Shown here: one piece after another, positions 480 to 15,640 of the stretch
Layout of the letters: each line of letters begins with the position of its first letter
How positions within the stretch are numbered: the stretch's first letter is position 1
Origin: a virus
UHGV virus genome: UHGV-0333408
DNA: 15,640 nucleotides
Reading direction: 5' to 3' (one strand)
Made by a program: the position numbers and the translations under genes
The notes under the pieces: generated by a model
Databases searched by the model: none
The model's input: only the letters and a program-made list of their open reading frames with translations
What the model was told of the DNA's origin: nothing

Positions 480-1298
<819 letters not shown>

Positions 1299-1435
1299 TC
1301 ATTGCAAGGGCTCACAACCAGTAGTGTTGAGAAAACCATCGGAGAAATGAGGCTAAGCCTTTGAATTTACATAGTACAAAAAAGATACTTTTCCTCATAA
1401 TGTGAGCTAATTTTATGTTTCGTTTGATGATTGGA

Positions 1436-1468
1436 CCGGTCTCGAAAACCGTAGACACATAGTATGCG
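1436..1468. repeat. Imperfect direct repeat, copy 2
   Basis: See copy 1 at 402-439. Confidence 0.5.
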
Positions 1469-1659
1469 TTAATTTATGAACAAACTACTTGTCTGCTGTT
1501 TTTCTGTCATTAGCCGTATATAGAATGATTCTCTATGCCTAACAAAGCATCACCAGTGCTAGATTACGTTGTAGTCACTGTTTAAATATCCAGATAAAAC
1601 ATTTCCTTCTGGGTTGAATGAGTGATAAAGTTTCACCCATTAGACCCCTTGGAGGAATT

Positions 1660-3093: not shown

Positions 3094-3099
3094 GAACAT

Positions 3100-3122
3100 C
3101 TCCCGGCCTTTTAAGCCGGGAG
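3100..3122. terminator. Stem-loop between the convergent M and R genes (CTCCCGGC-cttttaa-GCCGGGAG)
   Basis: An 8-bp perfect inverted repeat lies exactly between the two stop codons (3091-3093 and 3128-3130). There is no clear U-tract on either side, so function as a terminator is inferred from position only. Confidence 0.4.
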
Positions 3123-3127
3123 TCAGC

Positions 3128-4342
3128 CTATGATAGTTCAGCGTAAAGCTCTATCAGCTCAGTAATGAATGCTCCGAGCGTTATTAATTCTTCTCTAACT
3201 GCTTCTGGGTATTTTTTATGTAAAGTTGATGGTACAACGAGTCTGACACCCGCATCTTTCATTTCTCGGTATTGTGCTGAAGAAACACCTTCTTGCAGTG
3301 TAAATAAATGTACCTGATGGATTTTATCTGCTTCATTCAGTATCTGACGCCAGCGATCTTTGCAGGTGGTCTTTACTGCCAGCATACGTAAGTTTTCTAC
3401 AGGAAATTCAACGTTATGATATGCCTCTGCTGAAGGAAACAGGAAATCTGGTTTTTTATTACCTTCAGTAACTGCCTGAGTGGAGAAATGCCGTAGTCCG
3501 TGCTCGATAAAAAGCTTCTCTAGGTGAAGTTCAAGTGATTTGCCTGCCCTTGATTTACGTCGATTACTGACAGAGTTGGCTAATGCAATAAACTCATCTA
3601 CAGAATCGAATCCTTTCTTAATAATATCAAGAACATGTAATTCCTCGACGAGTAGAAAAATATCATACTCGACACGCCGACGGTCAATCAGTTGCTCATC
3701 TGGATCCTTGGAGTTTTTAGCATAATGGCCAGCAGCATATTGAATAATTTCGTTTCCAGAAGGAAAACGCTTCTTCCAGTCTTCAGGAATAACATATTTA
3801 TGATTTACTGGAGTTTGCTGAAGAGACAATCCGCCCAAAATTTGTCCGGCAGGGCCGGAAATTAGGGTTCCAGGTATGATTTCGCCAATAGCAGACTCGA
3901 TGATATCCTCTTCATCGGGATTGACGCAGACCCATATATCTACCTCGGAACAGTCAGTGTTCTGTTCGTTTAACCTGAAAGCAAGAATTGTGAGGGCTCC
4001 TGTATTTTCAGGGTTCTGTAATGGACTTCCTCTCCCCCAGCGCGTAATTCTTTTTTCGTTTCGGGTCTTACCAAAATAACGGTTGTTGTAATAAATTGCG
4101 CGTGCTTGGGTATCAGGGCAATCATGGGATGATACATGCGCAGTAAGGAAGACTGAAGGGTTCAGTTCGCGAGTATGATTGATAGATGGAAAAAGCTTTT
4201 CAACGATATTTGAGGGGATATAAAGTCCGACCTGATGGCCACCTGTTGCGCCTGTGTCGTTTGCAGAAAGGCGTTTGATGTAGATAAAGTAATTCCCGCT
4301 TGCGATATCAAGCAGCCAGTTATGAAAAACCGACATATACAT
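3128..4342 (-). CDS. ecoRIIR: Type IIE restriction endonuclease, EcoRII-like, 404 aa
   Basis: 404-codon ORF convergent with the Dcm-like gene. Numbering from the first ATG puts Asp299 in KPDFLF, Lys324 in LAVKTT and Glu337 in ILNEADK, which are the catalytic residues I recall being published for EcoRII. The length equals the recalled 404 aa. A better Shine-Dalgarno (AAGGGA) serves the ATG two codons downstream at 4336, so the start is ambiguous by two codons. Confidence 0.88.
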   Translation of the reverse strand: MYMSVFHNWLLDIASGNYFIYIKRLSANDTGATGGHQVGLYIPSNIVEKLFPSINHTRELNPSVFLTAHVSSHDCPDTQARAIYYNNRYFGKTRNEKRITRWGRGSPLQNPENTGALTILAFRLNEQNTDCSEVDIWVCVNPDEEDIIESAIGEIIPGTLISGPAGQILGGLSLQQTPVNHKYVIPEDWKKRFPSGNEIIQYAAGHYAKNSKDPDEQLIDRRRVEYDIFLLVEELHVLDIIKKGFDSVDEFIALANSVSNRRKSRAGKSLELHLEKLFIEHGLRHFSTQAVTEGNKKPDFLFPSAEAYHNVEFPVENLRMLAVKTTCKDRWRQILNEADKIHQVHLFTLQEGVSSAQYREMKDAGVRLVVPSTLHKKYPEAVREELITLGAFITELIELYAELS

Positions 4343-4412
4343 CCCTTTGTTAACATACAGTCAGGGTTAACATTTTTCCATAGTTATAGATAAGCGGCTA
4401 GGAACTTAAGGG

Positions 4413-4447
4413 AAAAACAAAAAGCCCGCATAAGCGGGCTTTTGTGT
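4413..4447. terminator. Bidirectional rho-independent terminator (AAAAAGCCCGC-ataa-GCGGGCTTTTG)
   Basis: A 6-bp GC stem with a 4-nt loop, flanked by an A-run on the 5' side and a T-run on the 3' side, so it can terminate on both strands. It sits between the att core and the R gene start, insulating the R gene from read-through out of the prophage. Confidence 0.7.
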
Positions 4448-4570
4448 CACTCGAGAGCCGCGGCTCCTTTGCGTATCCTTTTTTGTCTCCTCACCGTCTG
4501 GTCGGTGTCCTGCTGAGACTGCTAACTTCCTGTTTTTGTTGGTGTTGTCCTTACACCGTCCAATCATGAT

Positions 4571-4607
4571 TGGTGGAGCTGGCGGGAGTTGAACCCGAGT
4601 CCGAAAT
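4571..4607 (-). other. 37-bp copy of the 3' end of tmRNA (ssrA), one mismatch; putative prophage att core (attL-type junction)
   Basis: The + strand reads TGGTGGAGCTGGCGGGAGTTGAACCCGAGTCCGAAAT. This is the reverse complement of the E. coli ssrA 3' terminus (...ATTTCGGACGCGGGTTCAACTCCCGCCAGCTCCACCA) with a single C-to-A change. No tmRNA body follows, because 4615-5439 is protein-coding, so this is a partial att-type duplicate and not the gene. Confidence 0.8.
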
Positions 4608-4614
4608 AATTTAA

Positions 4615-5439
4615 CTATTTGTTTTTATTGTAATCGTGTTCATTTATAAAATCTGCGTAGCTTTTGCGTATCCTTTGACGTATTGCAGCAGTCCTACTTT
4701 TATTGAGCTTTTTAAACGTAAAGCTTGCGACATAGTCTATTGAACCATTAAAAGTCTGCGAGTCGACCAATGCGACTTCGGTTTCAAATAATTCAACAAT
4801 ATGTTTACCACCAATATCTTGATATTTTATTTCTAACATTGGTCCTTTAGTTTTATAAATATCGATTTGACCCTTAAGGTTTAGCATTATATCGTTCATT
4901 AAAAAGACTAAGGAAAGTGTTTGAAATTTTAGCTCAGCCTTTGTTTTTTCTACACTGTATGGTAAAAAACATTGTATGAATTCACTTTCCTTATTAATTA
5001 TATGTGTCATCATTCGGAGGTTGCTTCTTGAATAAAAGATTAGGTCGTTGTCACTTTCTTCAAAATGATAATTAAATAAAAATCTAGATGGGTCGGCTGG
5101 AGCTTCAGCGGAATTTAATTTATATAGCCTCTGCTGAAGATATTGTGCATATTCTTGGTGGTTGAAAATCCATTTATACTCGATATTTACAGCAGCACCT
5201 AATCCCGGATTTATTACATTGATTTTATATTCGTTATAAGTATTCCCATTTAAAATGTCTAAATCAAAGTCGTTTTTTACATTGCATTTACCTTTGAAGT
5301 GAAAATTTTGAGGTATGATCTGTGGTCTATACATACTTCTTCTCTGCATTATGGCTTGATAAATACCACAAGCAGCAAGAAATGCTGATATCATTGCAGC
5401 AATGCTGGAAACTACAGCTATCCATCGATCTAAAGTCAT
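4615..5439 (-). CDS. Hypothetical membrane-anchored protein (274 aa), AT-rich moron between att core and int
   Basis: Uninterrupted ORF. One predicted N-terminal transmembrane helix (WIAVVSSIAAMISAFLAACGIY) is followed by a basic stretch (QRRSMYRPQ), suggesting a cytoplasmic C-terminal domain. GC content is visibly much lower than the flanking prophage backbone. No motif I recognise. Confidence 0.7.
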   Translation of the reverse strand: MTLDRWIAVVSSIAAMISAFLAACGIYQAIMQRRSMYRPQIIPQNFHFKGKCNVKNDFDLDILNGNTYNEYKINVINPGLGAAVNIEYKWIFNHQEYAQYLQQRLYKLNSAEAPADPSRFLFNYHFEESDNDLIFYSRSNLRMMTHIINKESEFIQCFLPYSVEKTKAELKFQTLSLVFLMNDIMLNLKGQIDIYKTKGPMLEIKYQDIGGKHIVELFETEVALVDSQTFNGSIDYVASFTFKKLNKSRTAAIRQRIRKSYADFINEHDYNKNK

Positions 5440-5476
5440 AATGAAATCTCTGCCTAAAAGAGACAGAGATTATTTG
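5440..5476 (-). terminator. Hairpin between the int stop and the downstream membrane-protein gene
   Basis: On the minus strand: AATCTCTG-(loop)-CAGAGATT followed by TTTCATT. The position immediately after int fits a terminator or processing site, but the hairpin is weak. Confidence 0.3.
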
Positions 5477-6652
5477 TTATTTTTTGATTGTTTTCAATGC
5501 ATTTGCTGATGTGTTGTTATCGTAATCCTTTAGATACCTACCATAGTGCCTAAATAGCATTTCAGGCCCTTTATGACCCATTTGAGCCGCCAACCAGAAT
5601 AAGTTCACACCACGACTGATTTGTCGAGTCGCGAAGGTATGGCGTGTTTGGTATGGATTTCGGTACCGAATACCAGCCTTTCGCAATGTTGGCACCCATG
5701 CTTTTTTTCTAATTGCATCAGCACTTGCCCAGGGCTTATTGGTCTTTGGATCTTCAAAGACAGTAGCATCCTTCATGAATGTAAATGGCTTCTGGTTTAT
5801 CAACGCCAACATTGCTTCTTCAGTCAGTTCAACTTTACGGGTACCGGCTTTTGTCTTTGTCCCTTTGATAACACCAACAACACTTGCGCTCTGGACATGG
5901 GCAGTTTTCCCAACAAAGTCGATATCTCGCCATCGAAGGGCACATAATTCAGAACTACGCAGGCCTGTATGTATAGCGAACCGGAACAGATTTTCCCATT
6001 GTTTGTTTGCGGCTGCTGCTAGTAATGCATCAACTTCTGCTGGTGATAGCGGATCAACCACGTAGCTGCTTTCTGCTTCTGACTTATCACTTTGGTAGCG
6101 CGAAGCAGTTACTAACGATACGGGGTTAATTTGAAGTACCCCATCGGTCACGGCTTCATCAAGTGCTGACCGCAGGAAAGATAACTGGTTGCGAATGGTT
6201 TTTAAGGTAGTTTTCTGGCTTTGAATCCACGCTTTCAGGGTTGCTGGTGTTAATTCACTTGCAGGGCAAATGTGAAGTGAGGCTAACGCACTACGGCATT
6301 TTTTATAACCACCAATCGTAGAGGGTGAAAGTTTTCTTGTTTCGCAGATTTCAAGATATTCGTCTAGGTACATTTTTACCGTTTTGCCTGCAGCAGCATT
6401 ACCAAAAATTTTCAAACGAGCAGAACTGGGAAAATATTCCGCATAAATGAATGTTCCCCTTTCGATCTTATTATGAATTTCGCCGAGTGTGCGCTCGGCG
6501 TATTTAATGTTCTTTGGTGTTACTTCCAGATTGGAAAGAGGCTCACGACATTTAACACCTTTGTAGGTGAAAGTTATATTGATCGTTTCGCCCTGGCGGT
6601 GTTTCCTGATTGTTACGCCGCGCGGTAGTTTGAGCAGTTTTGTCTGGCCCAT
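5477..6652 (-). CDS. int: Tyrosine-type site-specific integrase (lambda Int family), 391 aa
   Basis: The C-terminal catalytic region has the conserved RHTFAT and FRHYGRY (tyrosine nucleophile) blocks. GAGG lies 8 nt upstream of the ATG. The gene reads toward the ssrA-derived att core, with an excisionase-like gene overlapping its 5' end, as in lambda. Confidence 0.93.
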   Translation of the reverse strand: MGQTKLLKLPRGVTIRKHRQGETINITFTYKGVKCREPLSNLEVTPKNIKYAERTLGEIHNKIERGTFIYAEYFPSSARLKIFGNAAAGKTVKMYLDEYLEICETRKLSPSTIGGYKKCRSALASLHICPASELTPATLKAWIQSQKTTLKTIRNQLSFLRSALDEAVTDGVLQINPVSLVTASRYQSDKSEAESSYVVDPLSPAEVDALLAAAANKQWENLFRFAIHTGLRSSELCALRWRDIDFVGKTAHVQSASVVGVIKGTKTKAGTRKVELTEEAMLALINQKPFTFMKDATVFEDPKTNKPWASADAIRKKAWVPTLRKAGIRYRNPYQTRHTFATRQISRGVNLFWLAAQMGHKGPEMLFRHYGRYLKDYDNNTSANALKTIKK

Positions 6653-6819
6653 TTTGCAACCTCACTAAGATCAATCCACCTCTCCTTAACGCCTTCAACC
6701 TTTAAAACCTGAACACCTTCACGCCAAACACCGCGCTGTACACGTTTGTTTATTGCTTCAGGAGTTTCGCCAGTTTCTTTGCAATAAGTTGAGATAGGAA
6801 CACAATCGAGGTTCAGCAT
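6613..6819 (-). CDS. xis: Excisionase-like small DNA-binding protein (68 aa)
   Basis: Small ORF immediately upstream of int, overlapping it by 40 bp (lambda xis and int overlap in the same way). GGAG lies 6 nt upstream of the ATG at 6819. The ORF track begins at a GTG at 6831. Confidence 0.6.
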   Translation of the reverse strand: MLNLDCVPISTYCKETGETPEAINKRVQRGVWREGVQVLKVEGVKERWIDLSEVAKWARQNCSNYRAA

Positions 6820-6878
6820 ATGTTTCTCCACTTAGCCCGCTGCACATGGGCAGTAATATCAAATTCCAGTCCTGATAA

Positions 6879-7094
6879 TTAATTTTGTTCTCTGGTTGCT
6901 ACTTGTTTTATTGGCCTGATGCTGTCCAGTAGCAGACGGCGACGCATGTTAGGTGCACCCCAACGGTAACCAGTCTTTTTGTCGTAGGATTCACAACGTC
7001 CGGCAACCCAGGACGTTTCAGTGGAATGTAATTTCATCCGCTTTTCACCGTCTCGGGTGATAACAATTCCTGTATGAGTTTTTATCACGCTCAT
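6879..7094 (-). CDS. Hypothetical prophage protein (71 aa)
   Basis: ORF whose start overlaps the stop of the upstream gene (ATGA-type coupling). No recognisable motif. Confidence 0.5.
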   Translation of the reverse strand: MSVIKTHTGIVITRDGEKRMKLHSTETSWVAGRCESYDKKTGYRWGAPNMRRRLLLDSIRPIKQVATREQN

Positions 7095-7453
7095 TTCTTA
7101 GTCTCTGGTGCTTTCGGCATTACTGCCCAGTGAGTGATATTGACGTTTTCAAGGTCCCCGACCTGAAATGTCCACTGCCATTCTCCGGTTTCTTTTTGTC
7201 CCCAGGTGTACCAGAGAGAACGCCAGCCAATCAGCCAGCCTTCTCCGTTAGCATCGAATAACAAAACACTTTCATTTGCTGGTGGCAGTTCAGTTGACAC
7301 TGGTATTACTTTGTTTTCCTGTGCTGCACATTTAGCTTCAAGCGCATCGAATTTACGCACCAGGTATTCAGCATCTGTTTCATTTACTTTCAGATCTCGC
7401 GGTACACATCTCCCACGAAGAAAACCTTCCATTTCGAAAACATTCATGCGCAT
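7091..7453 (-). CDS. yfdS: DUF551-like prophage protein (120 aa), YfdS-like
   Basis: The C-terminal NITHWAVMPKAPE resembles the conserved THW-MPLP-P end of DUF551 proteins. The length matches what I recall for E. coli CPS-53 YfdS. An alternative ATG at 7447 overlaps the upstream stop as ATGA. Confidence 0.55.
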   Translation of the reverse strand: MRMNVFEMEGFLRGRCVPRDLKVNETDAEYLVRKFDALEAKCAAQENKVIPVSTELPPANESVLLFDANGEGWLIGWRSLWYTWGQKETGEWQWTFQVGDLENVNITHWAVMPKAPETKK

Positions 7454-7980
7454 TTGCGTAACTCCGATAACTCGTTAAAGCGTTCCATAAACATCCCGTA
7501 GGCATGGCCCGGTGCCAGTGGAATCACGTTGAACATCTCTGTTGCCGGGATACCTTCCAGTACAGGCCAGAAAGAGCCATCATCAAGCCCGAGATCGCGG
7601 CGTTCGGTTGCCAGCATGATGAGATCGGCATATTTCACGGGCGTACTCATAACCGGGGGTAATCCGTATTTCTCACGGATTACGGAGTCTATTTTTTCTT
7701 CCATTTGTTTATAGTCAGGAAGAAGGCGTTTCAGTGGTGCGGGAATGTCCTGGCAATACGCTTCTGTTGCATCATGCATTAACGCTTCAAAAGCAAATTC
7801 CTGCGGCACCAGCTGGCTGCAAAGAACCGCATGTTGGGCGACGCTGTAGAAGTGCGAAAGATGACCGGCAAAGCGACAGATATTTGAAAGGGAAACCGCG
7901 ATATCGTTAATATCGATGTCGTCTTTATTTATCCTGTCATAATAAAAATGCTTCCCGGAAAAAGTTTTAATAAATGACAT
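7444..7980 (-). CDS. yfdR: HD-domain phosphohydrolase (YfdR-like 5'-nucleotidase family), 178 aa
   Basis: HD-superfamily metal-binding pattern: CRFAGH ... SVAQHA ... MHDATEAY ... D. The start is placed at the ATG at 7980 (GGAG 6 nt upstream) rather than the GTG at 8007, giving 178 aa, the length I recall for K-12 YfdR. Confidence 0.7.
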   Translation of the reverse strand: MSFIKTFSGKHFYYDRINKDDIDINDIAVSLSNICRFAGHLSHFYSVAQHAVLCSQLVPQEFAFEALMHDATEAYCQDIPAPLKRLLPDYKQMEEKIDSVIREKYGLPPVMSTPVKYADLIMLATERRDLGLDDGSFWPVLEGIPATEMFNVIPLAPGHAYGMFMERFNELSELRKCA

Positions 7981-8107
7981 TTTGTTCTCCACGTATATGC
8001 GCTGCACCGCGCTGAATTTGGGTAAAAGGAAGCCCTCACCATCCGGTGATTATTGAGTTAATTACGTTTCCATAAATGCCCCCGCAGGGGCATTTGCAGT
8101 AATGAAA

Positions 8108-8932
8108 TCAGGCGGTGAAAGTACCAATAAAGGTTTCTACTTTGCTGTCCTTGAATTTCTCAACAAGCAGATCACGAAATTCGTTAGCCATTTCTTCCTG
8201 CACCGCCTCCAGCTGAATAATGCGCAGAACCAGTACCGGACGATCGCCAGTGATAATGCTGAGGCGTAATTTAAACGGACGTTCTTTCAGACCTTCAAAC
8301 GGAATGCATTTAAATTCAAATGCCACTGGCATAATGTCTTTGGTCTTCGCTTCGACAGACTCCATCAGGGAGCGTTTGCCGCTGAAGTCATTATCTTCAA
8401 AATCAGCGGTCTGGTTTGCTTCAATCGTGATTTTACGGACCGCCGCAGCCGCTTTTGTTGCCTGAATGGTGTCACCATTAGCATCAAAGCCCACAAGGTA
8501 GTCGGCCCAGTCTTCAATCCATTCTGCCAGTGATTTCTGGGAGTTACGCTCGCCATTAACAGACAACAGAGCAGAGAACGGTGCTGTCTTTTTCAGTTTG
8601 AGAGTGGCGGTGTTATCTGCGTGACCTGGTTCATCAATAGTACCCAGGTTAAGCACACTGACGGCACGCATATTATCAGCATCGATAAAGCAGCGGGTGC
8701 CTTCATCTGCAAGATCTTTAGAATAACGGGTAAAGTCATCGATGCTGGCAGTGGAAAGCGCACCACGGAAACGGAAGCGATTTAAATTAAATTTTTCCAG
8801 ATCATGAATGCGGAAATTCTCAGGCAATGCCACAGCATCGGCACCAATCTTACTGATAATTTCATTAACACCCTGAGCAGAAATAAGGGCATGGATTTGA
8901 TTAATTGCGGTTGCGTCTAAGTTCTGAGACAT
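8108..8932 (-). CDS. yfdQ: Conserved prophage protein, DUF2303 / YfdQ-like (274 aa)
   Basis: Uninterrupted ORF with an RBS. Length and position (upstream of the HD-domain gene) match the yfdQ-yfdR arrangement I recall from K-12 CPS-53. Function unknown. Confidence 0.6.
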
Positions 8933-8997
8933 AATAAGTCCTCACTATATAAAGATATTCAGTGATGAGATAAATAATCAGTTAATTAAGAACGATA

Positions 8998-9360
8998 TTA
9001 ATGACCTGCTGCGCGGAGTTTTCCGTCAGGTTCACCGGCAAGAGTCAGTAATTGTCCCTGGTCTTCCTGCAGAATAGTCAGGCGACCACCGCGATTGACA
9101 TACATCGGCGTTTCGGTGGTGTCTTCTTCGGAAATTTTCCCGCGGTTAGTCGGGCGAACATATGAGAGTTTGTGTTTGATTTTCACACGGTTCTCATCAA
9201 ATGGTTCGATTTCCAGGTTGAGTGAGACCTTACCTTTGGTTTTCGTGTTCATCACACCGGAAGCGACTTCACTGAGAACTGCGCCGATTTTGGTTTCAAA
9301 TACGCCGCCGTCCAGCTCCCCGATAAATGCCTGCACATCAGTACTGCGTTCGCTAGCCAT
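8998..9360 (-). CDS. Hypothetical prophage protein (121 aa), possibly YfdP-like
   Basis: The start is placed at the ATG at 9360, which has AGGAG 7 nt upstream. The longer 182-aa ORF would start in a Cys/Arg-rich stretch with no RBS. Confidence 0.55.
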   Translation of the reverse strand: MASERSTDVQAFIGELDGGVFETKIGAVLSEVASGVMNTKTKGKVSLNLEIEPFDENRVKIKHKLSYVRPTNRGKISEEDTTETPMYVNRGGRLTILQEDQGQLLTLAGEPDGKLRAAGH

Positions 9361-9988
9361 TTTGCTGCTCCTCATCATATCGACCCTGCAAGGCCGGTTG
9401 GTTTCTCCACAAAACAGAGAAGAACACCTGCGGTGGCAGCCGCCCGGATGGATTGGGTTATGAGCCCGTCGTCCGGTGATGCTCTTCTCTGTTTTGTAAA
9501 AAGAGCGGTACCAGCCGGAAGCAAGTGTACAAACTGGTACCGCCAAAGCAGTGGCTGTTGTGGTGACCGGTGCTGATCTCCGGCTTGCGGTTATTTCAGA
9601 CTCTCACGGGCGTTTAATTGCCCCGCCGAACAGCTCTTTTCCGCAATAGCTGCAATGTCTTTCGCGCATCAGCCTGCGCATTCACCACAACGCTGAGAGC
9701 ACTTAGCCAGTTACGGCACCACACTTTGTCGCGGTTCCATAAATGCCCTCATCGTTGCACCCTGGTCTCTTCCCAGGCGTCAAACCGAATCGCCACGCTG
9801 GTTAGGCGTCTTATCAGCATCATCATTGACTTGCACATTCCGGCTACCTGGTTTGTTTGCCCGAGCAAGGAGTGGATTGTCCCCTTTAACGTCACCAGAC
9901 CGCTAACGACGCATGTGCCATACGCCGTGTTACAACCAAATTTTGTTAGTACCTTGTTTGTTGGTCTGGAAAGAAAGATAAAATGAAG

Positions 9989-10027
9989 TTGCGCATTATG
10001 CAAGTGTTTTTATTGCGAGATATGCAA
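9989..10027. promoter_or_regulatory. OL-like operator pair (two TTGC-N7-GCAA dyads) and probable leftward early promoter
   Basis: TTGCGCATTATGCAA (9989-10003) and TTGCGAGATATGCAA (10013-10027) share a dyad pattern with the OR site at 10796-10810. They lie just beyond the cI terminator, where lambda carries OL/pL. Confidence 0.5.
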
Positions 10028-10082: not shown

Positions 10083-10775
10083 TTAATTGTGTCGCTTAAG
10101 GGTTTGTGACTGGCTGATTAAGACCTTTCCAAAGACCATAAACCGGTGTTCATTTTCGCTGGTAATTCCCCATTCACGGTAAATCTGGTTATCAGAAATC
10201 ACCAGTAGTTTGTCAGGTATCATTTGCAGTCGTTTGACATAAATTTTATCATCAAAACCAAATACATAGATACCATCTCCATCAAACTGATTGATACTGA
10301 CATCAACGAAGATGAGATCTCCTGGCTCAATGGTTGGACACATACTGTCCCCACGAACGTTGATAACTTTGATGTGATTGGCTGGTCGTCCGCCGAACAT
10401 TGATACAGCATTATCAGTTCTGTATTCGATGGCATGAATCACATCAATGACATCACCGCCCTGGATAAGGCCATTTCCCGCACTGGCACTGACATCCAGC
10501 ATTTCAATACGGAATACATCCTTCACCTGCGCAACATCCTCACTAATACTGTTTTTACATACAGTATTACTTTTGAAGTCTGAGGTAAAGAGATCAGCAA
10601 TATCAACACCTAAGCTCCTGGCAATATTACTCAGGGCTTGTTCAGTGAATTGTTTCTGCTTACCTGTTTCCAGGCGTGAGATATTCGCCGCATCCACTCC
10701 TATTGCTTCAGCGAGATCGGCGATTTTCATGTTCTTCGCCTGGCGAAGTTGTCTGACTCGATTTCCTATGTTCAT
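10083..10775 (-). CDS. cI-like prophage repressor (HTH_XRE plus S24 LexA-type autopeptidase), 230 aa
   Basis: N-terminal HTH (KIADLAEAIGVDAANISRLETGK). C-terminal S24 peptidase with the Ser nucleophile in RGDSMCPTI and Lys in YVKRL. A candidate Ala-Gly autocleavage site lies in SASAGNG. The gene is divergent from a cro-like gene. Confidence 0.9.
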   Translation of the reverse strand: MNIGNRVRQLRQAKNMKIADLAEAIGVDAANISRLETGKQKQFTEQALSNIARSLGVDIADLFTSDFKSNTVCKNSISEDVAQVKDVFRIEMLDVSASAGNGLIQGGDVIDVIHAIEYRTDNAVSMFGGRPANHIKVINVRGDSMCPTIEPGDLIFVDVSINQFDGDGIYVFGFDDKIYVKRLQMIPDKLLVISDNQIYREWGITSENEHRFMVFGKVLISQSQTLKRHN

Positions 10776-10872: not shown

Positions 10873-11133
10873 ATGCAATCACCATTACGGAATGTGCGTA
10901 AAGCGCACGGATTTACTTTGCAGCATGTTGCTGCGGGCGTTCAGGTCAATCCAGCGACGCTGAGTCGTATTGAAAGACTGGAACAAATTCCATCTATCGA
11001 CCTTGCAGAACGTCTGGCCAATTTTTTTAAGGGTGAAATCAGCGAAATGCAGATTCTTTATCCGGCACGTTTTCAATCTAGCCAAAACCAGAATGGGTTT
11101 AAACCACAGGAACAGGAGGTAAGCCGTGGGTAA
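10873..11133 (+). CDS. Cro-like HTH transcriptional regulator (86 aa)
   Basis: HTH_XRE signature (GFTLQHVAAGVQVNPATLSRIERLEQ). GGAGG lies 5 nt upstream of the ATG. Divergent from the cI-like gene across the operator region. Confidence 0.8.
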   Translation: MQSPLRNVRKAHGFTLQHVAAGVQVNPATLSRIERLEQIPSIDLAERLANFFKGEISEMQILYPARFQSSQNQNGFKPQEQEVSRG

Positions 11134-11677
11134 GCATCACTGGAAAGTGGAAAAACAACCTGACTGGTACGTGAAAGCTGTCAGAAAAACTATCGCGGCA
11201 TTGCCAGGTGGTTACGCTGAAGCTGCTGATTGGCTGGATGTAACAGAGAACGCATTATTTAATCGCCTTCGTGCCGATGGTGATCAGTTTTTTCCGTTGG
11301 GATGGGCAATGGTTTTACAGCGCGCGGCTGGCACTCACTACATTGCGGATGCTGTCGCACAGTCTGCTGGTGGGGTGTTCGTATCGCTTCCTGAAATTGA
11401 GGAAGTAGAGAACGCCGATATAAACCAGCGCCTGCTGGAAGTCATCGAACAGATCGGGAGTTACTCAAAGCAGATTCGTTCGGCAATCGAAGATGGGGTC
11501 GTGGAGCCACACGAGCAGACAGCAATTAATGATGAGTTGTATCTGTCAATTTCGAAGCTCCAGGAGCATGCAGCACTGGTCTACAAAATCTTTTGCGCTC
11601 CAGAAAAGAGTGACGCCCGCGAGTGTGCAGCTCCGGGCGTCGTGGCGTTTTGTGTCTGTGGAGAAACTAACGCATGA
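11126..11677 (+). CDS. CII-like regulator (CP76 / YdaT-like family), 183 aa
   Basis: GTG start with AGGAGG 7 nt upstream, overlapping the cro stop. Lies immediately downstream of cro, as CII and YdaT homologues do. The family call is from recalled resemblance and position, not a confirmed match. Confidence 0.55.
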   Translation: MGKHHWKVEKQPDWYVKAVRKTIAALPGGYAEAADWLDVTENALFNRLRADGDQFFPLGWAMVLQRAAGTHYIADAVAQSAGGVFVSLPEIEEVENADINQRLLEVIEQIGSYSKQIRSAIEDGVVEPHEQTAINDELYLSISKLQEHAALVYKIFCAPEKSDARECAAPGVVAFCVCGETNA

Positions 11678-12825
11678 ACAGTTTAACGGCAAATAACCGT
11701 TTGTCGCAACAACCGGTGGTCAGCGTCGCTGAACACCGGTTGTTATGGCATGAATGCAGATTACCAAATCACCTGGCTGTAAGTAACCACAGAGAACTTT
11801 ACCTGACTGTGGGGGGCGAGTTGTGCAGGAACTTAACCGCTGGTTTCGTGACGGAAGAGGACTTTATGTTCATGTTATTCGTTGGGAGCCAGAAACACAG
11901 CGCGTTATCTATCTTCGCAAAGACTACCCGCATGAGTGCTTTAGTCCTTTGTGGAAATTCAGGCGTGATTTTGTTGAGTGTGAAGGACCACCAGCACATT
12001 GATTCTGCCATTCCGGGACGTTACACTGTTCAGGCACCTTATAAAACGGGTGCCGGGCGTGGAAACCCGGAATTCACCAAAGCGCACAACCGCGCTCTTG
12101 CGGTTTTTTTGTGTCATGAGCAGCATTACGCCCAAATTATGGTGGGGCGTGCAGGGCCAACTTCGGTTGGGCCGGGTTCTTTGGTGACCGGTATTTCCAC
12201 CCCTGTACGTCTCACCACCAATAAGGTCGTGGAAAGCCTTGGTGGTGAGTTATTAAAAATCACCAAAGAGGCTGCCATCATGGCTACGATCCCAACCCTC
12301 ACTCAACCTGAAATTGCCATCGTTGATGGTCAGGCTGTTACTTCATCCTTGGCTGTTGCCAACTTCTTCTCCAAACGTCATGACGATGTACTGAAAAAGA
12401 TCCGCACGCTTGAATGCTCAGCATCATTCACTGCCCGCAATTTTTCGGTGAGTGATTACACTGATTGCACAGGTCGCAAACTTCCTTGCTACCAAATCAC
12501 ACGCGACGGTTTTGCGTTTCTTGCTATGGGTTTCACGGGTAAACGTGCTGCCCAGTTCAAGGAGGCATACATCAATGCCTTTAACCAGATGGAGAAACAG
12601 CTTTCAAAGCCCTCTGTACCGAGCGACGTTGCACATAACGCCAGCGTTCTCTGTTCCTACATTTCATCAATTCATCAGGTCTGGCTGCAGCAGCTTTATC
12701 CTATGTTGGCAAAAGCCGAATCTCCGCTGGCTGTTAGCTTGTATGACTATATTAATGATGCTTCGGCACTGGCCTGCCTCATAAATTTGTCGCTGAACCC
12801 TTCAGAGGTATGGGGGCGCAAATGA
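11674..12825 (+). CDS. Rha-domain phage regulatory protein (383 aa as read; N-terminal ~200 aa of uncertain coding status)
   Basis: The C-terminal ~180 aa (from the ATG at 12280, which has AAGAGG upstream) reads as a Rha / ORF6N-type domain (PTLTQPEIAIVDGQAVTSSLAVANFFSKRHDDVLKKIR ... ITRDGFAFLAMGFTGKRAAQFKEAYINAF). The N-terminal 200 aa has atypical composition, and an alternative-frame ORF exists at 11823-12002. Confidence 0.6.
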   Translation: MNSLTANNRLSQQPVVSVAEHRLLWHECRLPNHLAVSNHRELYLTVGGELCRNLTAGFVTEEDFMFMLFVGSQKHSALSIFAKTTRMSALVLCGNSGVILLSVKDHQHIDSAIPGRYTVQAPYKTGAGRGNPEFTKAHNRALAVFLCHEQHYAQIMVGRAGPTSVGPGSLVTGISTPVRLTTNKVVESLGGELLKITKEAAIMATIPTLTQPEIAIVDGQAVTSSLAVANFFSKRHDDVLKKIRTLECSASFTARNFSVSDYTDCTGRKLPCYQITRDGFAFLAMGFTGKRAAQFKEAYINAFNQMEKQLSKPSVPSDVAHNASVLCSYISSIHQVWLQQLYPMLAKAESPLAVSLYDYINDASALACLINLSLNPSEVWGRK

Positions 12826-13046
12826 TCCGGAATATTTTCAAACGGTTTACCAATCAGACTTTCCGTTGTCCTCGCCCCGGTCAGTGGTACACCACGCCTG
12901 CAGGGCATGTTCTACGTGTCAGCCTGGTTGACCGTGAATGTCAGAAGGTGATTTGTGAACCGCTGGGCCGTAATTATCGCGTCAGTATGCCGCTTATAGC
13001 CTTTCGCTCCGGAAAAAACATGAAGCATCTCGGAGGTGCAGCATGA
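12822..13046 (+). CDS. Small prophage protein (74 aa)
   Basis: The ATG at 12822 overlaps the upstream stop as ATGA and has GGGGG upstream. It is part of a chain of translationally coupled genes. Confidence 0.5.
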   Translation: MIRNIFKRFTNQTFRCPRPGQWYTTPAGHVLRVSLVDRECQKVICEPLGRNYRVSMPLIAFRSGKNMKHLGGAA

Positions 13047-13861
13047 GTATGGAGCTGATGGTTAAAGCGATGAAAATTCGAGTGGGAAATCCATTGCGAA
13101 AACTGGTTCTGATCAAGCTGGCTGATAATGCCAGCGATCAGGGGGAGTGCTGGCCCAGCTACCAGCATATTGCTGACCAGTGCGAGATTAGCAAACGTTC
13201 TGTGATGAATCATATTGCGGCCCTTTGTGAGTCCGGGCTGGTAAAAAAAGTCACCCGGAAAGGTGAAAAAGGTAACTCAAGTAATATCTATCTCCTTCAT
13301 CTGGATGGTGCAGGAGATTCACTAGGGGGTAGTGCAAATAATTCACTATCTGGTGCAGCAAATTCACCAGGTAGTGCAGGAGTTGCACCAGGGGGTAGTG
13401 CAGGAGATTCACCCAGAACCAGTCACTCTTTTGAACCAGTCAAAGAACCAGTCAATGAACCAATAGCTGTTGGTGCATCAGTTGATGAGTCCGTGCGAGT
13501 TCGTTCAAACCGACCGGAATACTCTCCGGAGTTTGAGCAGGCATGGCTGGCATACCCCAAACGTGCTGGTGGCAATTCAAAATCTGCAGCCTTCAAAGCC
13601 TGGAAAGCCCGTTTGAATGAGGGGGTAAAACCCGAAACCATGCTGGAAGGTGTGAAACGCTACGCGGGCTGGGTATCTGCGATGGGTAACAGCGGCACAC
13701 AATTTGTGAAACAGGCTGTCACGTTCTTTGGTCCGGATCGTCATTTCGAAGAATCCTGGGAAGTTCCTGCGGTATCTGCAGCCAGACGCGAGGACCCGTA
13801 CTTCAAAGCCAGTTACGACAACGTGGACTACAGCCAGATCCCGGCAGGATTCAGGGGGTAA
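13043..13861 (+). CDS. Replication initiator, lambda O-like (N-terminal winged-helix HTH, internal repeat linker), 272 aa
   Basis: The N-terminal RKLVLIKLADNASDQGECWPSYQHIADQCEISKRSVMNHIAALCESGLVKK resembles replication-initiator HTH domains. The middle of the gene is encoded by tandem DNA repeats (iteron-like). The start overlaps the upstream stop as ATGA. Confidence 0.6.
   Translation: MSMELMVKAMKIRVGNPLRKLVLIKLADNASDQGECWPSYQHIADQCEISKRSVMNHIAALCESGLVKKVTRKGEKGNSSNIYLLHLDGAGDSLGGSANNSLSGAANSPGSAGVAPGGSAGDSPRTSHSFEPVKEPVNEPIAVGASVDESVRVRSNRPEYSPEFEQAWLAYPKRAGGNSKSAAFKAWKARLNEGVKPETMLEGVKRYAGWVSAMGNSGTQFVKQAVTFFGPDRHFEESWEVPAVSAARREDPYFKASYDNVDYSQIPAGFRG
13305..13465. repeat. Iteron-like tandem repeats inside the O-like gene (putative prophage replication origin)
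   Basis: About five tandem copies of a ~21-bp unit (GGT(A/G)GTGCAGGAGATTCACC and variants) at 13305-13415, followed by three copies of GAACCAGTCAA at 13418-13460. Lambda also carries its ori iterons inside O. Confidence 0.55.
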
Positions 13862-13863
13862 TC

Positions 13864-14349
13864 ATGAGTCTTTTGAATGAAGTTCAGAAATTCATTGAAG
13901 CCCATCCGGGGTGTACTTCCGGAGACATTGCGGATGCTTTTGCAGGTTACTCACGGCAGCGCGTTCTGCAGTCAGCAAGCAAGTTACGTCAGAGTGGGCG
14001 TGTGGCTCACCGTTGTGAAGGAGATACACGCAGACATTTCCCACGCCTGACTGAGAGAGCGCAGGAGCCGGAACCACAACCAGTTCGTGAAACCAGACCT
14101 GTGCGCAATTTCTATGTCGGCACTAACGATCCCCGGGTGATTTTGTTGACCCGCCAGGCGGAAGAACTGGAGTCCAGGGGCTTATACCGTCGTGCTGCAA
14201 CGGTGTGGATGGCGGCATTCCGTGAAAGCCACTCCCAGCCAGAACGAAACAATTTTCTGGCGCATCGTGAGCGGTGCTTACGGAAAAGCAGCAAGCGCGC
14301 TGCATCGGGTGAAGAGTGGTATCTGTCAGGGAATTACGTGGGGGCTTAA
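13864..14349 (+). CDS. PerC-family-like transcriptional regulator (161 aa)
   Basis: The block AEELESRGLYRRAATVWMA matches the LE.RG.WRRAA.VW signature I recall for PerC/Pch proteins. An N-terminal winged-helix-like region precedes it. Confidence 0.5.
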   Translation: MSLLNEVQKFIEAHPGCTSGDIADAFAGYSRQRVLQSASKLRQSGRVAHRCEGDTRRHFPRLTERAQEPEPQPVRETRPVRNFYVGTNDPRVILLTRQAEELESRGLYRRAATVWMAAFRESHSQPERNNFLAHRERCLRKSSKRAASGEEWYLSGNYVGA

Positions 14350-15002
14350 TGAGTAATAAATATTGCCAGGCGCTGGTGGAGCTGCGGAACAAACCAGCCC
14401 ATGAACTGAAGGAAGTGGGCGATCAGTGGCGCACGCCGGACAACATTTTCTGGGGAATTAACACCCTGTTTGGCCCGTTTGTTCTGGATCTGTTTACTGA
14501 TGGTGATAACGCCAAATGTGCCGCTTATTACACTGCGGAAGACAACGCGCTGGCGCATGACTGGTCAGAACGTCTTGCGGAGCTTAAAGGTGCTGCCTTT
14601 GGTAATCCCCCGTACAGCCGCGCCAGTCAGCATGAGGGGCAATACATCACCGGCATGCGTTACATCATGAAACATGCCAGTGCTATGCGTGATAAAGGCG
14701 GGCGCTATGTTTTCCTGATCAAAGCTGCCACCAGCGAAGTGTGGTGGCCGGAAGATGCAGACCATATTGCTTTTATTCGCGGGCGTATTGGTTTTGAACT
14801 GCCTGTCTGGTTTATCCCGAAAGACGAGAAGCAGGTGCCGACAGGAGCTTTCTTCGCTGGTGCTATTGCTGTTTTTGACAAGACCTGGAAGGGACCGGCA
14901 ATCAGCTACATCGGGCGCGATGAACTTGAGGCATGTGGTGAGGCGTTTCTGGCGCAGGTTCGCCAGCAGGCGGAAAAACTGCTCAGGGAGATGGCGGCAT
15001 GA
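14349..15002 (+). CDS. Phage Dam-like N6-adenine DNA methyltransferase (217 aa)
   Basis: Catalytic NPPY motif (GAAFGNPPYSRAS). The ATG at 14349 overlaps the upstream stop (TAATG) and has GGGGG upstream. The ORF track begins earlier at 14316. Confidence 0.8.
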   Translation: MSNKYCQALVELRNKPAHELKEVGDQWRTPDNIFWGINTLFGPFVLDLFTDGDNAKCAAYYTAEDNALAHDWSERLAELKGAAFGNPPYSRASQHEGQYITGMRYIMKHASAMRDKGGRYVFLIKAATSEVWWPEDADHIAFIRGRIGFELPVWFIPKDEKQVPTGAFFAGAIAVFDKTWKGPAISYIGRDELEACGEAFLAQVRQQAEKLLREMAA

Positions 15003-15325
15003 CGACGTTAACTCAATGCCAGCAGCAGGTGCTGGATATGCTGATTTCTTATCAGAAAGAACGTGGCTTCCCGCCAACCAATCAGGAGGTGGCAACCATG
15101 CTGGGATACCGTTCAGTGAATGCAGCGGTGGAGCATCTTCGAGCACTGGAGAAAAAAGGCGTCATCACGATAAAGCGTGGCGTGGCCAGGGGTATCACTC
15201 TTCATACCGCGGTGAAGGACGACGACAGCGAGGCGGTCGGGATTATCCGCTCACTGCTTGCCGGTAAGGAAAACGCCAGGCTGCGTGCAGCCCACTGGTT
15301 ACATGAGAGGGGCCTGAAAGTATGA
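14999..15325 (+). CDS. LexA DNA-binding-domain-like small protein (108 aa), no peptidase domain
   Basis: LTQCQQQVLDMLISYQKERGFPPTNQEVATMLGYRSVNAAVEHLRALEKKGVI resembles the N-terminal winged-helix of LexA. The start overlaps the Dam stop as ATGA. Confidence 0.6.
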   Translation: MTTLTQCQQQVLDMLISYQKERGFPPTNQEVATMLGYRSVNAAVEHLRALEKKGVITIKRGVARGITLHTAVKDDDSEAVGIIRSLLAGKENARLRAAHWLHERGLKV

Positions 15326-15640
15326 AGCTGATCCTGCCTTTTCCGCCCAGCGTGAACACGTACTGGCGACACCCCAACAAAGGGGCGTTTGCTGGTAAGA
15401 GCCTGATAAGCGCGGCGGGGCGCAAATTCCAGAGCGCGGCGTGTGCAGCAATAGTTGAGCAGTTACGTCGTCTGCCGAAACCAACGTCGGCACCTGCTTC
15501 AGTGGAGATCGTGTTGTTTCCTCCGGATAACCGGATCCGCGATCTGGACAACTATAACAAGGCGCTGTTTGACGCCCTGACCCACGCGGGTGTGTGGGAA
15601 GACGACAGTCAGGTGAAAAGAATGCTGGTGGAGTGGGGAC
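15322..15640 (+). CDS. rusA: RusA-family Holliday-junction resolvase (5' part; continues beyond the window)
   Basis: LPFPPSVNTYWRH ... RDLDNYNKALFDALTHAGVWEDDSQV matches the RusA pattern (LPWPPS.N ... DLDN ... FDAL ... W.DD.QV). The start overlaps the upstream stop as ATGA. The ORF is open to the window edge. Confidence 0.75.
   Translation, partial: MKLILPFPPSVNTYWRHPNKGAFAGKSLISAAGRKFQSAACAAIVEQLRRLPKPTSAPASVEIVLFPPDNRIRDLDNYNKALFDALTHAGVWEDDSQVKRMLVEWG

Follow-up and report, generated by a model that had tools for sequence, protein, structure and literature searches.

Three overlapping genes lie between a replication gene and rusA

The stretch of DNA analysed here, referred to as the window, comprises 15,640 nt of the virus genome UHGV-0333408. 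We found three intact open reading frames on its + strand: a PerC-like gene at 13864-14349 (161 aa), a Dam-like gene at 14349-15002 (217 aa counted from the ATG) and a LexA-like gene at 14999-15325 (108 aa). In the program-made list of open reading frames the Dam frame opens at a GTG at 14316, and we used the 654-nt form given in the SfV, mEp460 and PGAP annotations. The initial annotation had described the three genes as joined through overlapping stop and start codons, and direct reading of the sequence confirmed this. The TAA of the PerC-like gene (14347-14349) shares one base with the Dam ATG, forming TAATG at 14347-14351 (+), while the ATG at 14999 overlaps the Dam TGA (15000-15002), forming ATGA at 14999-15002 (+). 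Each start has its own Shine-Dalgarno-like run, which is GGGGG for the PerC-like and Dam genes and GGGAG for the LexA-like gene. The chain of overlaps runs past the trio, with a further ATGA at 15322-15325 (+) linking the LexA-like gene to rusA, and overlapping junctions were also found upstream, at cro/cII, cII/next ORF, Rha/phrog_1153 and phrog_1153/rep. Stop/start codon overlap is the commonest gene arrangement in bacterial and phage operons, and here it is nothing peculiar to the trio, being present at the neighbours on both sides. The overlaps are compatible with the translational coupling proposed for the three genes, and are not in themselves proof of it.

The names of the three genes also proved right. 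Profile searches, which had been suggested as a check on the PerC and LexA DNA-binding domain assignments, gave matches above the curated thresholds for both PF06069 and PF01726, and the methyltransferase was recognised equally clearly. All three genes are under purifying selection, with dN/dS values of 0.05 for Dam and 0.13 for the LexA-like gene (81 alleles each) and of 0.12 for the PerC-like gene, the last calculated from only three alleles. Three shadow ORFs in antisense or alternative frames over the block (14565-15146, -; 14755-15267, +; 14123-14392, -) gave zero matches in a Pfam search and were taken as non-coding.

The trio occupies a nin-region position in a lambdoid early operon

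The gene upstream of the trio, at 13043-13861 (+), encodes a replication initiator (HTH_36/DnaD-like; phrog_270) that corresponds to the SfV orf39 'replication protein', and it ends 2 nt before the PerC-like start. Downstream lies rusA (15322-15640, +; Pfam RusA, 7.8e-14), encoding a Holliday-junction resolvase and cut by the window end; RusA is annotated downstream of the trio in all related records. The rightward early operon that contains the trio is gated by a cI-type repressor with Pfam matches to HTH and Peptidase_S24 domains (10083-10775, -), from which cro (10873-11133) diverges beside a PRM-like promoter match at 10866-10839. Moreover, the window carries a YfdR-like ORF at 7444-8007 and an ORF with a profile match to DUF2303 (YfdQ type) at 8108-8932, and in a related E. 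coli prophage PGAP gives the names yfdP, yfdQ and yfdR to adjacent genes.

SfV, mEp460 and E. coli chromosomes share one gene order, namely rep, PerC-like, Dam, LexA-like, RusA and, further on, Q, while the order is rep, LexA-like, RusA in mEp390 and rep, PerC-like, LexA-like in SfIV. In these four phages the slot corresponds to the nin-region position of the PR early operon, from rep to rusA and on to Q, upstream of Q. The trio fills the slot of the lambda nin region, between the replication initiator and a rusA-(kilA-N)-(HNH)-Q segment. When the + strand was scanned from 13000 to 15640, no promoter-like and no terminator-like site was revealed. SfV carries an annotated 'dam promoter' (TTGCGC/TACGGA), which is weak and is not conserved, its TTG reading CTG in the window. 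Ahead of the block, at 12034-12222, this operon also holds isrK-like and C4-like RNAs whose hairpins resemble terminators, which makes simple read-through from PR into the trio an assumption and counts against the reading given below.

Our preferred reading, to which we give a probability of about 60%, is that the trio belongs to the normal delayed-early gene set of the rightward (PR) operon in a lambdoid phage of the SfV/mEp460/CPS-53 type. Upon infection or SOS induction, following cI cleavage, its genes would be transcribed alongside those for replication, probably on one long polycistronic message in which most adjacent genes overlap by 1-16 nt. The trio is in fact already annotated, ordinary and very widespread in the early operons of lambda-like E. 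coli prophages, and the block was matched, in part or as a whole, in 2675 of 5426 complete E. coli genomes. To describe its modularity, we used a sample of 80 rusA-anchored IMG/VR loci. All three genes were present in 53 loci, the PerC-like and LexA-like genes in 14 and the PerC-like gene with Dam in six; Dam alone occurred in three, Dam with the LexA-like gene in two and the LexA-like gene alone in two. Each gene is thus present or absent independently beside the same rusA, indicating that the trio is not one unit, and the three genes represent independent mosaic modules rather than a single functional cassette.

The trio had initially been read as a cargo block with lysogenic-conversion functions, that is, a moron-like cassette acting on the host in the lysogen, with the PerC-like protein activating virulence loci, Dam reprogramming the host epigenetically and the LexA-like protein interfering with the SOS response. 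This reading can draw on the genuine PerC-family membership of the first gene, since Pch proteins control the LEE in EHEC (PMC5931665, PMC7369912), and on a promoter-trap study in UTI89, in which a urine-induced fragment set lay across rusA, the LexA-like gene, dam and yfdN1 (log2 1.6; PMC5404293), so some transcription in the lysogen state is possible. Overexpression of K-12 yfdN altered glycogen accumulation (PMC2853380), and overexpression of a Rha-to-Dam fragment of the same prophage type in UTI89 led to filamentation (PMC6206680; gene equivalence taken from notes). However, these overexpression phenotypes were derived from plasmids and not from lysogens, and the block lies inside the early lytic operon, between rep and rusA/Q, in every relative examined. 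The trio has neither a promoter nor a terminator of its own in the scanned region, its GC content is 0.52-0.58 with no AT-rich signature, and its three genes assort independently. True cargo in these phages adjoins int or att, as do the conversion genes gtrA/B/V in SfV and the accessory genes PD-T4-3 and Dcm/EcoRII, which lie next to the integrase in the window. The marks of a moron, namely a flanking promoter and terminator, a location at a module boundary or at att/int, and inheritance as a unit, are therefore all missing from the trio. We consider the cargo reading improbable; as found, the trio matters little, being a common piece of the lambdoid early operon, and the virulence or conversion label is an over-interpretation.

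The first gene encodes a two-domain PerC-like protein

The PerC-like gene call was borne out by Pfam PerC (PF06069), which matched at 35.4 bits against a cut-off of 22.6, the match covering aa 97-148 only (profile positions 5-56 of 90), and by phrog_1324 'transcriptional activator' (1e-75). One match to the protein bears the source name 'CPS-53 (KpLE1) prophage protein'. The AF2 model showed a wHTH at residues 1-60 (pLDDT ~90), a disordered segment at 63-85 and helices at 90-148, so that the modelled protein consists of an N-terminal winged-helix domain, a disordered linker and a C-terminal three-helix PerC domain. Foldseek with this model returned only generic winged-helix matches with E > 0.001, and a PDB sequence search with the protein gave nothing significant. 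The LESxGLxRRAATVW core is conserved in the PerC domain, and the window copy has one residue missing, at a variable position, relative to all aligned homologues. We also observed a sub-threshold similarity of the PerC domain to NCBIfam ANR (AraC negative regulator) proteins, at 20 bits against a cut-off of 32. The gene, of the YfdN type, encodes a putative winged-helix and PerC-domain regulator.

The analogy to the Pch virulence regulators, which the initial annotation had brought up, turned out to be weak. PerC/Pch activators of the LEE are single-domain, PerC-only proteins of about 90-105 aa, a description that the 161-aa window protein does not fit; each group 1 pch gene spans 315 bp, corresponding to ~104 codons (PMC5931665). 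The divergent homologues PchD and PchE gave no activation of ler or less than 2-fold, and a yfdN deletion in the reporter strain of that study was made as a precaution (PMC5931665). In the literature searched, we found no documentation of ler activation by YfdN-type proteins. Both the two-domain architecture and the lack of meaningful ler activation by PchD and PchE speak further against the cargo reading.

The second gene encodes an orphan methyltransferase of the phage Dam family

The Dam-like methyltransferase call was likewise well founded: TIGR01712 (phage_N6A_met) matched at 256.5 bits against a cut-off of 97 and Pfam Dam (PF05869) at 156 bits against 28.1, and an NPPY motif at aa 86-89 agrees with the (D/N)PPY catalytic motif. 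Moreover, a match to the PADLOC MTase_II model spans the full length of the protein, which shares 99.5% identity with phage Dam genes already annotated and has relatives in 586 phage records. A PDB sequence search gave nothing significant, and a defence-system library run against the block returned generic methyltransferase models only. By sequence, the protein is an orphan phage N6-adenine DNA methyltransferase of the phage Dam family. It is most likely GATC-specific, by family-level analogy to M.EcoVT2Dam of VT2-Sakai, whose target is GATC (PMC6602927) and to which it is only 31% identical over 143 residues. GATC is neither depleted nor enriched in the window, with 50 sites observed against 60 expected.

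Host Dam is rate-limiting on high-copy DNA (bioRxiv 10.1101/2020.06.22.160242), and the phage enzyme may keep fast-replicating phage DNA fully methylated while host Dam is limiting. Such full methylation would protect progeny DNA from GATC-directed restriction and from MutH nicking. The gene also bears on anti-restriction and on retron-type defence systems able to sense the activity of Dam (bioRxiv 10.1101/2020.06.22.160242). Methylome sequencing had been suggested as a check on the block; given that the expected GATC motif is already saturated by host Dam (PMC6602927), the absence of a new methylation motif in the lysogen would be uninformative.

The third gene encodes a LexA DNA-binding domain with a conserved helical tail

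The claim that the third gene encodes a LexA DNA-binding domain without a protease domain was also substantiated. Pfam LexA_DNA_bind (PF01726) matched at 69 bits over aa 1-65, covering the full 65 profile positions, while the TIGR00498 lexA equivalog model matched at 69.3 bits, under its cut-off of 110.95, and only over the first 91 of 203 model positions. With its last residue at 108, the protein lacks the S24 peptidase/dimerisation domain and its Ser-Lys dyad. As modelled, the 108 aa comprise a LexA-type winged HTH (1-68), a short linker and a conserved helical hairpin (75-102). The AF2 model had a pLDDT of 77, and its top Foldseek matches were 1lea and 3jso, with rmsd values of 1.3-1.5 A.

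In a gap-free alignment with E. coli LexA, 35 of 69 residues are identical (51%), and S39, N41, A42, E45, R64 and G65 are kept while E44 is replaced by V; among the five residues of helix III listed in PMC3091678 as contacting DNA (S39, N41, A42, E44 and E45), four are therefore retained. All 14 divergent family members compared have S39, about eight retain N41/A42/E45 whereas about six change N41, A42 or E45, and none has E44. The tail, a predicted helical hairpin with a pLDDT of ~85, is conserved across ~12 clusters at 50% identity and in homologues as distant as 36% identity. The DNA-binding domain is the more constrained part, with a dN/dS of 0.04 compared with 0.28 for the tail. We also observed that A88-G89 aligns with A84-G85 of LexA, the Ala-Gly cleavage site, in a protein without the catalytic domain; the homologues carry V-G, T-G, A-E or A-N at this place.

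SOS boxes in the phage and possible roles of the LexA-like protein

A near-consensus LexA/SOS box, TACTGTTTTTACATACAGTA, lies inside the cI (S24 repressor) gene at 10547-10566 (no strand assigned), in the codons of the HTH/S24 linker. Its score was 25.8 with a PWM based on ~21 SOS boxes, and the maxima of shuffled sequences had a mean of 10.6 and a 95th percentile of 14.8. The identical box was found within the same cI allele in 110 of 120 IMG/VR loci, and a second cI allele carries TACTGTATATAAAAACAGTA at the equivalent place. We regard the cI-internal box as a candidate target of both host LexA and the LexA-like protein; no promoter was found near it, by scan or by manual reading of both strands. 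Consensus SOS boxes occur in this phage family in cI, at dinI and at a late methylase gene. CTGT...ACAG half-sites at the canonical N8 spacing are enriched in mEp460, with 5 found against 0.63 expected, and they are the only spacing to be so. Two possible associations of SOS boxes with the LexA-like gene gave no support. SOS-box density among the 80 rusA-anchored loci was the same with the gene (0.37 per 10 kb, n = 68) as without it (0.32, n = 8, a small control), and the joint presence of the cI-internal box and the gene in 38 of the 43 loci with enough flank reflects simple physical linkage within one prophage lineage.

The retained contact residues and the consensus boxes of the family give some support to the idea of SOS-box binding by the LexA-like protein. 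Its most likely binding sites are inverted repeats of the CTGT type, in the form of SOS-like boxes in the phage and perhaps in the host, and its two-helix tail probably mediates dimerisation. This binding would be timed to lytic growth, when host LexA is already destroyed. Given that the protein has no cleavage domain, RecA* cannot inactivate it. One proposal, which we hold tentatively and consider unlikely, is that it is a RecA-proof stand-in for LexA: made from the early operon only when SOS induction has already eliminated both host LexA and cI, and dimerised by its tail, it would re-occupy canonical SOS boxes, and the phage would in this way silence the SOS response again in a cell already bound for lysis. 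Its targets might include the cI-internal box, where repressor re-synthesis would be blocked, and the boxes at the phage dinI and late methylase genes; possible further targets are SOS promoters of the host and, in rival prophages, antirepressors under LexA control. If such an uncleavable SOS-box binder is real, phages could shut off the host DNA-damage response, and LexA-controlled rivals with it, after using the same response as their induction signal.

Alternatively, the protein may be a phage-specific regulator with its own operator, activating or repressing a phage promoter without acting on host SOS boxes. The precedent is gp6 of the Bacillus phage GIL01, a truncated LexA homologue that is 44% identical to host LexA, is made early, binds GaCACAnnTGTGaC, a phage palindrome that differs from the SOS box, at -35 of the late promoter P3, and activates P3 (PMC6182141). 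A role of this kind is favoured by the variable recognition helix among family members (NTIAGH, SNAVLLH, SKAVLLH and others), by the substitution of E44 in every one of them and by the equal density of SOS boxes with and without the gene. On the other hand, the E. coli clade that includes the window conserves S39, N41, A42 and E45, with its DNA-binding domain strongly constrained, and neither a phage-specific palindrome nor an enriched alternative CTGT half-site spacing, such as a differently dimerised protein might use, was found in the window or in mEp460. Nor is a late activator obviously needed, as late transcription in lambdoid phages already depends on Q. We consider a phage-specific regulator possible but not probable.

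A third explanation places the activity in the tail, which would contact other proteins (e.g. RecA*, host LexA, RNA polymerase or the adjacent replication and recombination proteins), with the DNA-binding domain serving only for localisation. The tail is indeed kept in homologues of as little as 36% identity, and A97 and L101 hardly vary; the gene always lies among replication and recombination genes (rep, Dam, RusA), and the small GIL01 protein gp7 modulates LexA through direct binding (PMC6182141). However, no partner was predicted by any of our results, and it is the DNA-binding domain and not the tail that is most constrained. A two-helix hairpin on a palindrome-binding wHTH is most simply read as a dimerisation element. 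We think it very unlikely that the protein acts mainly through such contacts.

Whichever role applies, this gene for a LexA DNA-binding domain with a tail, belonging to a block that has matches in roughly every second complete E. coli genome, marks a real knowledge gap: no experimental assignment of its function was found in the literature searched. It co-resides with consensus SOS boxes in odd spots, the interior of cI among them.

Comparison with known phages and regulators

The closest counterpart of the block is orf40-dam-orf42 of SfV (GenBank U82619.2/NC_003444), with the same genes, order, overlaps and neighbours (rep upstream and rusA downstream), and the same block is also found in mEp460, cdtI, SfII and the Stx2a/2c/2k phages. 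DNA identity to SfV-type blocks is 97-98% across 1462 bp, with a 3-nt in-frame deletion in the PerC-like gene of the window. In contrast, the cI/cro immunity region and the Rha/isrK/C4 insert of the window are unlike SfV and match mEp460. In K-12, a relative of the first gene is yfdN of CPS-53 (KpLE1), and the PGAP label on an orthologue is 'yfdN: PerC family transcriptional regulator'. We take CPS-53 to be only a degraded remnant, without an intact Dam or a LexA-like gene, whereas the window copy is intact.

The PerC domain, with PF06069 above threshold, is common to the window protein, PerC of EPEC and PchA/B/C of EHEC. Pch proteins have a single domain and their genes lie outside the early operon, whereas the 161-aa window protein has an extra N-terminal winged helix and disordered linker and is encoded inside it. 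The window Dam belongs to the same family as M.EcoVT2Dam, which is also encoded by a nin-region gene with overlapping neighbours, but the two differ in length (217 aa vs 175 aa) and strongly in sequence. The LexA-like protein is predicted to share the winged-HTH fold of the E. coli LexA NTD (PDB 1LEA, 3JSO) and has the same wing residues R64 and G65. Unlike LexA, it carries E44V and R28N substitutions, has no S24 autocleavage/dimerisation domain and hence no Ser119/Lys156, and bears a 40-residue helical tail in place of the C-terminal domain.

By analogy of domain content, the nearest characterised relative in kind is GIL01 gp6, which is likewise a LexA DNA-binding domain without a cleavage domain encoded by a phage early gene (PMC6182141), and the only experimentally characterised truncated phage LexA homologue that we found in the literature searched. 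While gp6 belongs to a Gram-positive tectivirus, has evolved its own operator and activates a late promoter, the window protein retains LexA recognition residues, adds a conserved tail and belongs to a lambdoid phage with Q-dependent late genes.

The PerC-like, Dam and LexA-like genes are part of the early operon

We found that the PerC-like ORF (13864-14349, plus strand, 161 aa), the Dam ORF (14349-15002, plus strand, 217 aa counted from its ATG) and the LexA-like ORF (14999-15325, plus strand, 108 aa) match PerC, Dam and the LexA DNA-binding domain, respectively, in profile searches, so that the family names in the initial annotation were right. The overlapping stop-start codons were also confirmed from the sequence: the PerC-like stop TAA and the Dam ATG have one base in common in TAATG (14347-14351), the Dam and LexA-like genes meet at ATGA (14999-15002), and a G-rich Shine-Dalgarno-like run precedes each start. 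These overlaps are consistent with translational coupling but are no proof of it. Moreover, the LexA-like gene overlaps the downstream rusA (15322 onward; RusA, Pfam 7.8e-14) by an ATGA at 15322, the upstream replication gene ends 2 nt short of 13864, and the junctions upstream of that gene likewise overlap; thus, the junctions do not set the trio apart. With 81 alleles each, Dam and the LexA-like gene had dN/dS values of 0.05 and 0.13; the PerC-like gene, with few alleles, had 0.12. These values indicate working genes, while antisense and alternative-frame ORFs over the block gave no family match.

Rightward from the minus-strand S24-type cI (10083-10775) lie cro (from 10873), a cII-like gene (from 11126), a Rha-type antirepressor region (up to 12825), phrog_1153 (from 12810), the replication initiator (from 13043), the trio and rusA; the leftward early genes (DUF551, YfdR-like, YfdQ/DUF2303) occupy 6600-10000. 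Past the trio, the operon of the related phages SfV and mEp460 continues with rusA, kilA-N, HNH/DUF968 and Q, followed by the lysis genes. Being upstream of rusA to Q, the trio occupies the place of the lambda nin region, within the PR delayed-early transcription unit.

Two Rfam RNAs were also observed, an isrK-like sRNA (12034-12110, 67.9 bits) and a C4 antisense RNA (12135-12222, 83.6 bits), which would constitute a P1/P7 ImmI-like antisense module in the early-right operon, upstream of the block; terminator-like hairpins are present in this module. Both fall within a mechanically called 383-aa 'Ash/Rha' ORF (11674-12825) and are overlapped by its Phage_ASH Pfam match, and the true start of the antirepressor is probably the ATG at 12280.

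The trio genes assort separately, and a conversion-cargo reading is not supported

The initial annotation took the trio for a cargo block pointing to host-regulatory or lysogenic-conversion functions. A consensus scan of the coding strand from 13000 to 15640 revealed no promoter-like or terminator-like sites; SfV has an annotated dam promoter, a weak pairing of TTGCGC and TACGGA, whose TTG reads CTG in the window. Many acquired inserts typically carry an AT-rich signature, which is absent from the trio (GC 0.52-0.58), the truly AT-rich stretch being 4800-5600, adjoining the integrase. Further, the gene order is rep, LexA-like, rusA in mEp390 and rep, PerC-like, LexA-like in SfIV. Of 80 IMG/VR loci that share this rusA as anchor, all three genes were present in 53, PerC-like with LexA-like in 14, PerC-like with Dam in six, Dam alone in three, and Dam with LexA-like or LexA-like alone in two each, indicating that the trio is not inherited as a unit.

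The conversion genes gtrA/B/V of SfV adjoin int, and the accessory and defence cargo of the window (480-5439) likewise adjoins its integrase (5477-6652, minus strand). This cargo comprises a PD-T4-3 defence gene (480-1253; a GIY-YIG protein, PADLOC 7e-139), a Dcm-like methyltransferase carrying an N-terminal regulatory domain (1618-3093), an EcoRII-type endonuclease forming a restriction-modification pair with it (3128-4342), and an AT-rich ORF of 274 aa with no family match (4615-5439, GC 0.31-0.34). In contrast, a related prophage at ssrA in E. coli 13C1079T carries PD-T4-3, Dcm and EcoRII at the att end opposite int, so that the window has either the circular or vegetative gene order or an att site other than that of this relative; no tRNA or tmRNA gene was found within it. 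Taken together, given the early-operon position, the lack of promoter and terminator of its own, the base composition and the separate assortment, we conclude that the trio consists of three mosaic modules, independent of one another, within the early lytic operon and is not a conversion cassette.

In a UTI89 promoter-trap screen, urine-induced fragments covered rusA, a hypothetical (LexA-like) gene, an SfV-type dam and yfdN1 (PMC5404293), so low-level transcription of the block in lysogens is possible. This prophage segment occurs twice in UTI89, in the C5098-C5102 and C2996-C3000 regions, and UTI89_C5103 is the LexA-like gene; a plasmid fragment from Rha to Dam (C5098-C5102, with gene equivalence taken from annotation notes) caused filamentation with a low score (PMC6206680).

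The block is already annotated, known and very common. With the 1462-bp block as megablast query, 2675 of 5426 complete E. coli genomes matched, 1610 of them with at least 80% of the query covered, in up to four places per genome. PGAP labels the genes "yfdN: PerC family transcriptional regulator", "phage N-6-adenine-methyltransferase", "LexA family transcriptional regulator" and RusA. At 95-99% identity, the block occurs in 50 phage records, including SfV (orf40, dam, orf42), mEp460 and Stx2c phages; the LexA-like protein is also encoded by SfII, cdtI and Stx2a/2k phages and shares 99% identity with a cluster containing 782 deposited sequences.

The PerC-like protein has the YfdN architecture

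The Pfam PerC match (35.4 bits, threshold 22.6) is limited to residues 97-148. In the AF2 model (pLDDT 74), a confident N-terminal winged-helix domain (1-60) is followed by a disordered linker rich in Pro and Glu (63-85) and then by three helices (90-148), on which the PerC match falls; Foldseek with this model returned only generic winged-helix regulators at non-significant E-values. This is the architecture of YfdN, whereas the 315-bp group 1 pch genes encode a single-domain protein. In the literature covered, yfdN was simply deleted from a ler-lacZ reporter strain, and the divergent homologues PchD and PchE activate ler less than 2-fold or not at all (PMC5931665); overexpression of K-12 yfdN alters glycogen accumulation (PMC2853380).

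The window gene lacks one codon relative to all 14 aligned homologues (VILLT against the consensus VIL[C/R/H]LT), an in-frame loss at about 14143-14150 (codon ~94), where the PerC domain begins and the position is a variable one. We also observed a sub-threshold match of PerC domain residues 96-128 to the NCBIfam ANR (AraC negative regulator) family (20.2 bits, cut-off 32), which may stem from a distant kinship of the two families.

The Dam protein belongs to a widespread phage orphan family

The Dam protein scored 156 bits against Pfam Dam and 256 bits (cut-off 97) against the NCBIfam phage N6-adenine methyltransferase equivalog, and carries NPPY at residues 86-89. This orphan family is widespread (586 phage records). 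In VT2-Sakai, a Dam-family gene likewise lies in the nin region with overlapping neighbours; its enzyme M.EcoVT2Dam, which targets GATC (PMC6602927), is 31% identical to the window protein. The initial annotation held that the absence of a new methylation motif in the lysogen would count against its reading; since lysogen methylomes cannot separate prophage Dam homologues from host Dam (PMC6602927), this comparison has no refuting power. Host Dam is limiting on high-copy DNA, and Dam has been viewed as a phage anti-restriction function sensed by retron-Sen2 (bioRxiv 10.1101/2020.06.22.160242). The window shows no depletion of GATC (50 observed, ~60 expected), and the predicted role of the enzyme would be full GATC methylation of replicating phage DNA.

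SOS boxes and the LexA-like protein

We scanned for SOS boxes using a weight matrix built from ~21 E. coli boxes, for which shuffle maxima had a mean of 10.6 and a 95th percentile of 14.8. A near-consensus box, TACTGTTTTTACATACAGTA (10547-10566, score 25.8), sits in the cI codons for the HTH-S24 linker, and no promoter was evident beside it by consensus scan and reading. At least 110 IMG/VR loci having this cI allele carry the box unchanged, and a second allele has TACTGTATATAAAAACAGTA in its place; the box might, for instance, act as a roadblock to transcription of cI. The second box, CACTGTTTAAATATCCAGAT (1576-1595, score 18.2), also exceeds the 95th percentile and lies ~25 nt upstream of the Dcm-like gene of the EcoRII-type pair, which may point to SOS control of the methylase.

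The cI-internal box is identical in mEp460, which has further boxes at 23255, 23283 and 41021. Two boxes lie at the promoter of its dinI homologue. Another falls on the opening codons of a DNA methyltransferase gene in the late region, between Q and the holin gene, and this last box is shared with SfV (11045). Only the canonical N8 half-site spacing was enriched in mEp460 (5 against 0.63 expected). In SfIV, a box (3765) falls in the gap directly after the LexA-like gene, and in a Klebsiella phage one (at 3994) precedes a leftward two-gene unit. Box density was alike whether the LexA-like gene was present (0.37 per 10 kb, 68 loci) or absent (0.32 per 10 kb, 8 loci), so that a link between these boxes and the LexA-like protein is a hypothesis and no finding.

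[quoted passage not shown] A gap-free alignment to E. coli LexA residues 2-69 gave 35/69 identities. Among the helix-III DNA contacts Ser39, Asn41, Ala42, Glu44 and Glu45 (PMC3091678), four are retained and Glu44 is replaced by Val; in the wing, Arg64 and Gly65 are likewise kept. Over 14 aligned members, Ser39 is invariant, Asn41/Ala42/Glu45 occur in about eight and Glu44 in none. In the AF2 model (pLDDT 77), disordered residues 69-74 separate the winged HTH from a helical hairpin (75-87 and 93-102), and the structures closest to this model are the LexA N-terminal domain, alone and DNA-bound (rmsd 1.3-1.5 A). A profile search of 1.84 billion representatives found this architecture in about a dozen clusters at 50% identity, and the tail pattern is conserved over the 14 members, down to 36% identity. 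Constraint is strongest in the DNA-binding domain, with a dN/dS of 0.04 compared with 0.28 in the tail, and the tail is most simply a putative dimerisation element.

Because the protein has no S24 domain, RecA* would be unable to inactivate it, and it could re-occupy SOS boxes after host LexA is destroyed, a role that we consider unlikely. Alternatively, it may be a phage-specific regulator with its own operator, for which gp6 of Bacillus phage GIL01 provides the precedent (PMC6182141), a possible but still doubtful assignment. A regulatory function of some kind through DNA binding is far more probable than either of these two versions. The remaining interest lies in this uncharacterised protein with a LexA DNA-binding domain and a tail, and in the unexplained SOS consensus box that lies within cI. 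The closest characterised analogue of the protein is GIL01 gp6, a truncated LexA homologue encoded among the early genes, which recognises a palindrome of its own and switches on the late promoter (PMC6182141).
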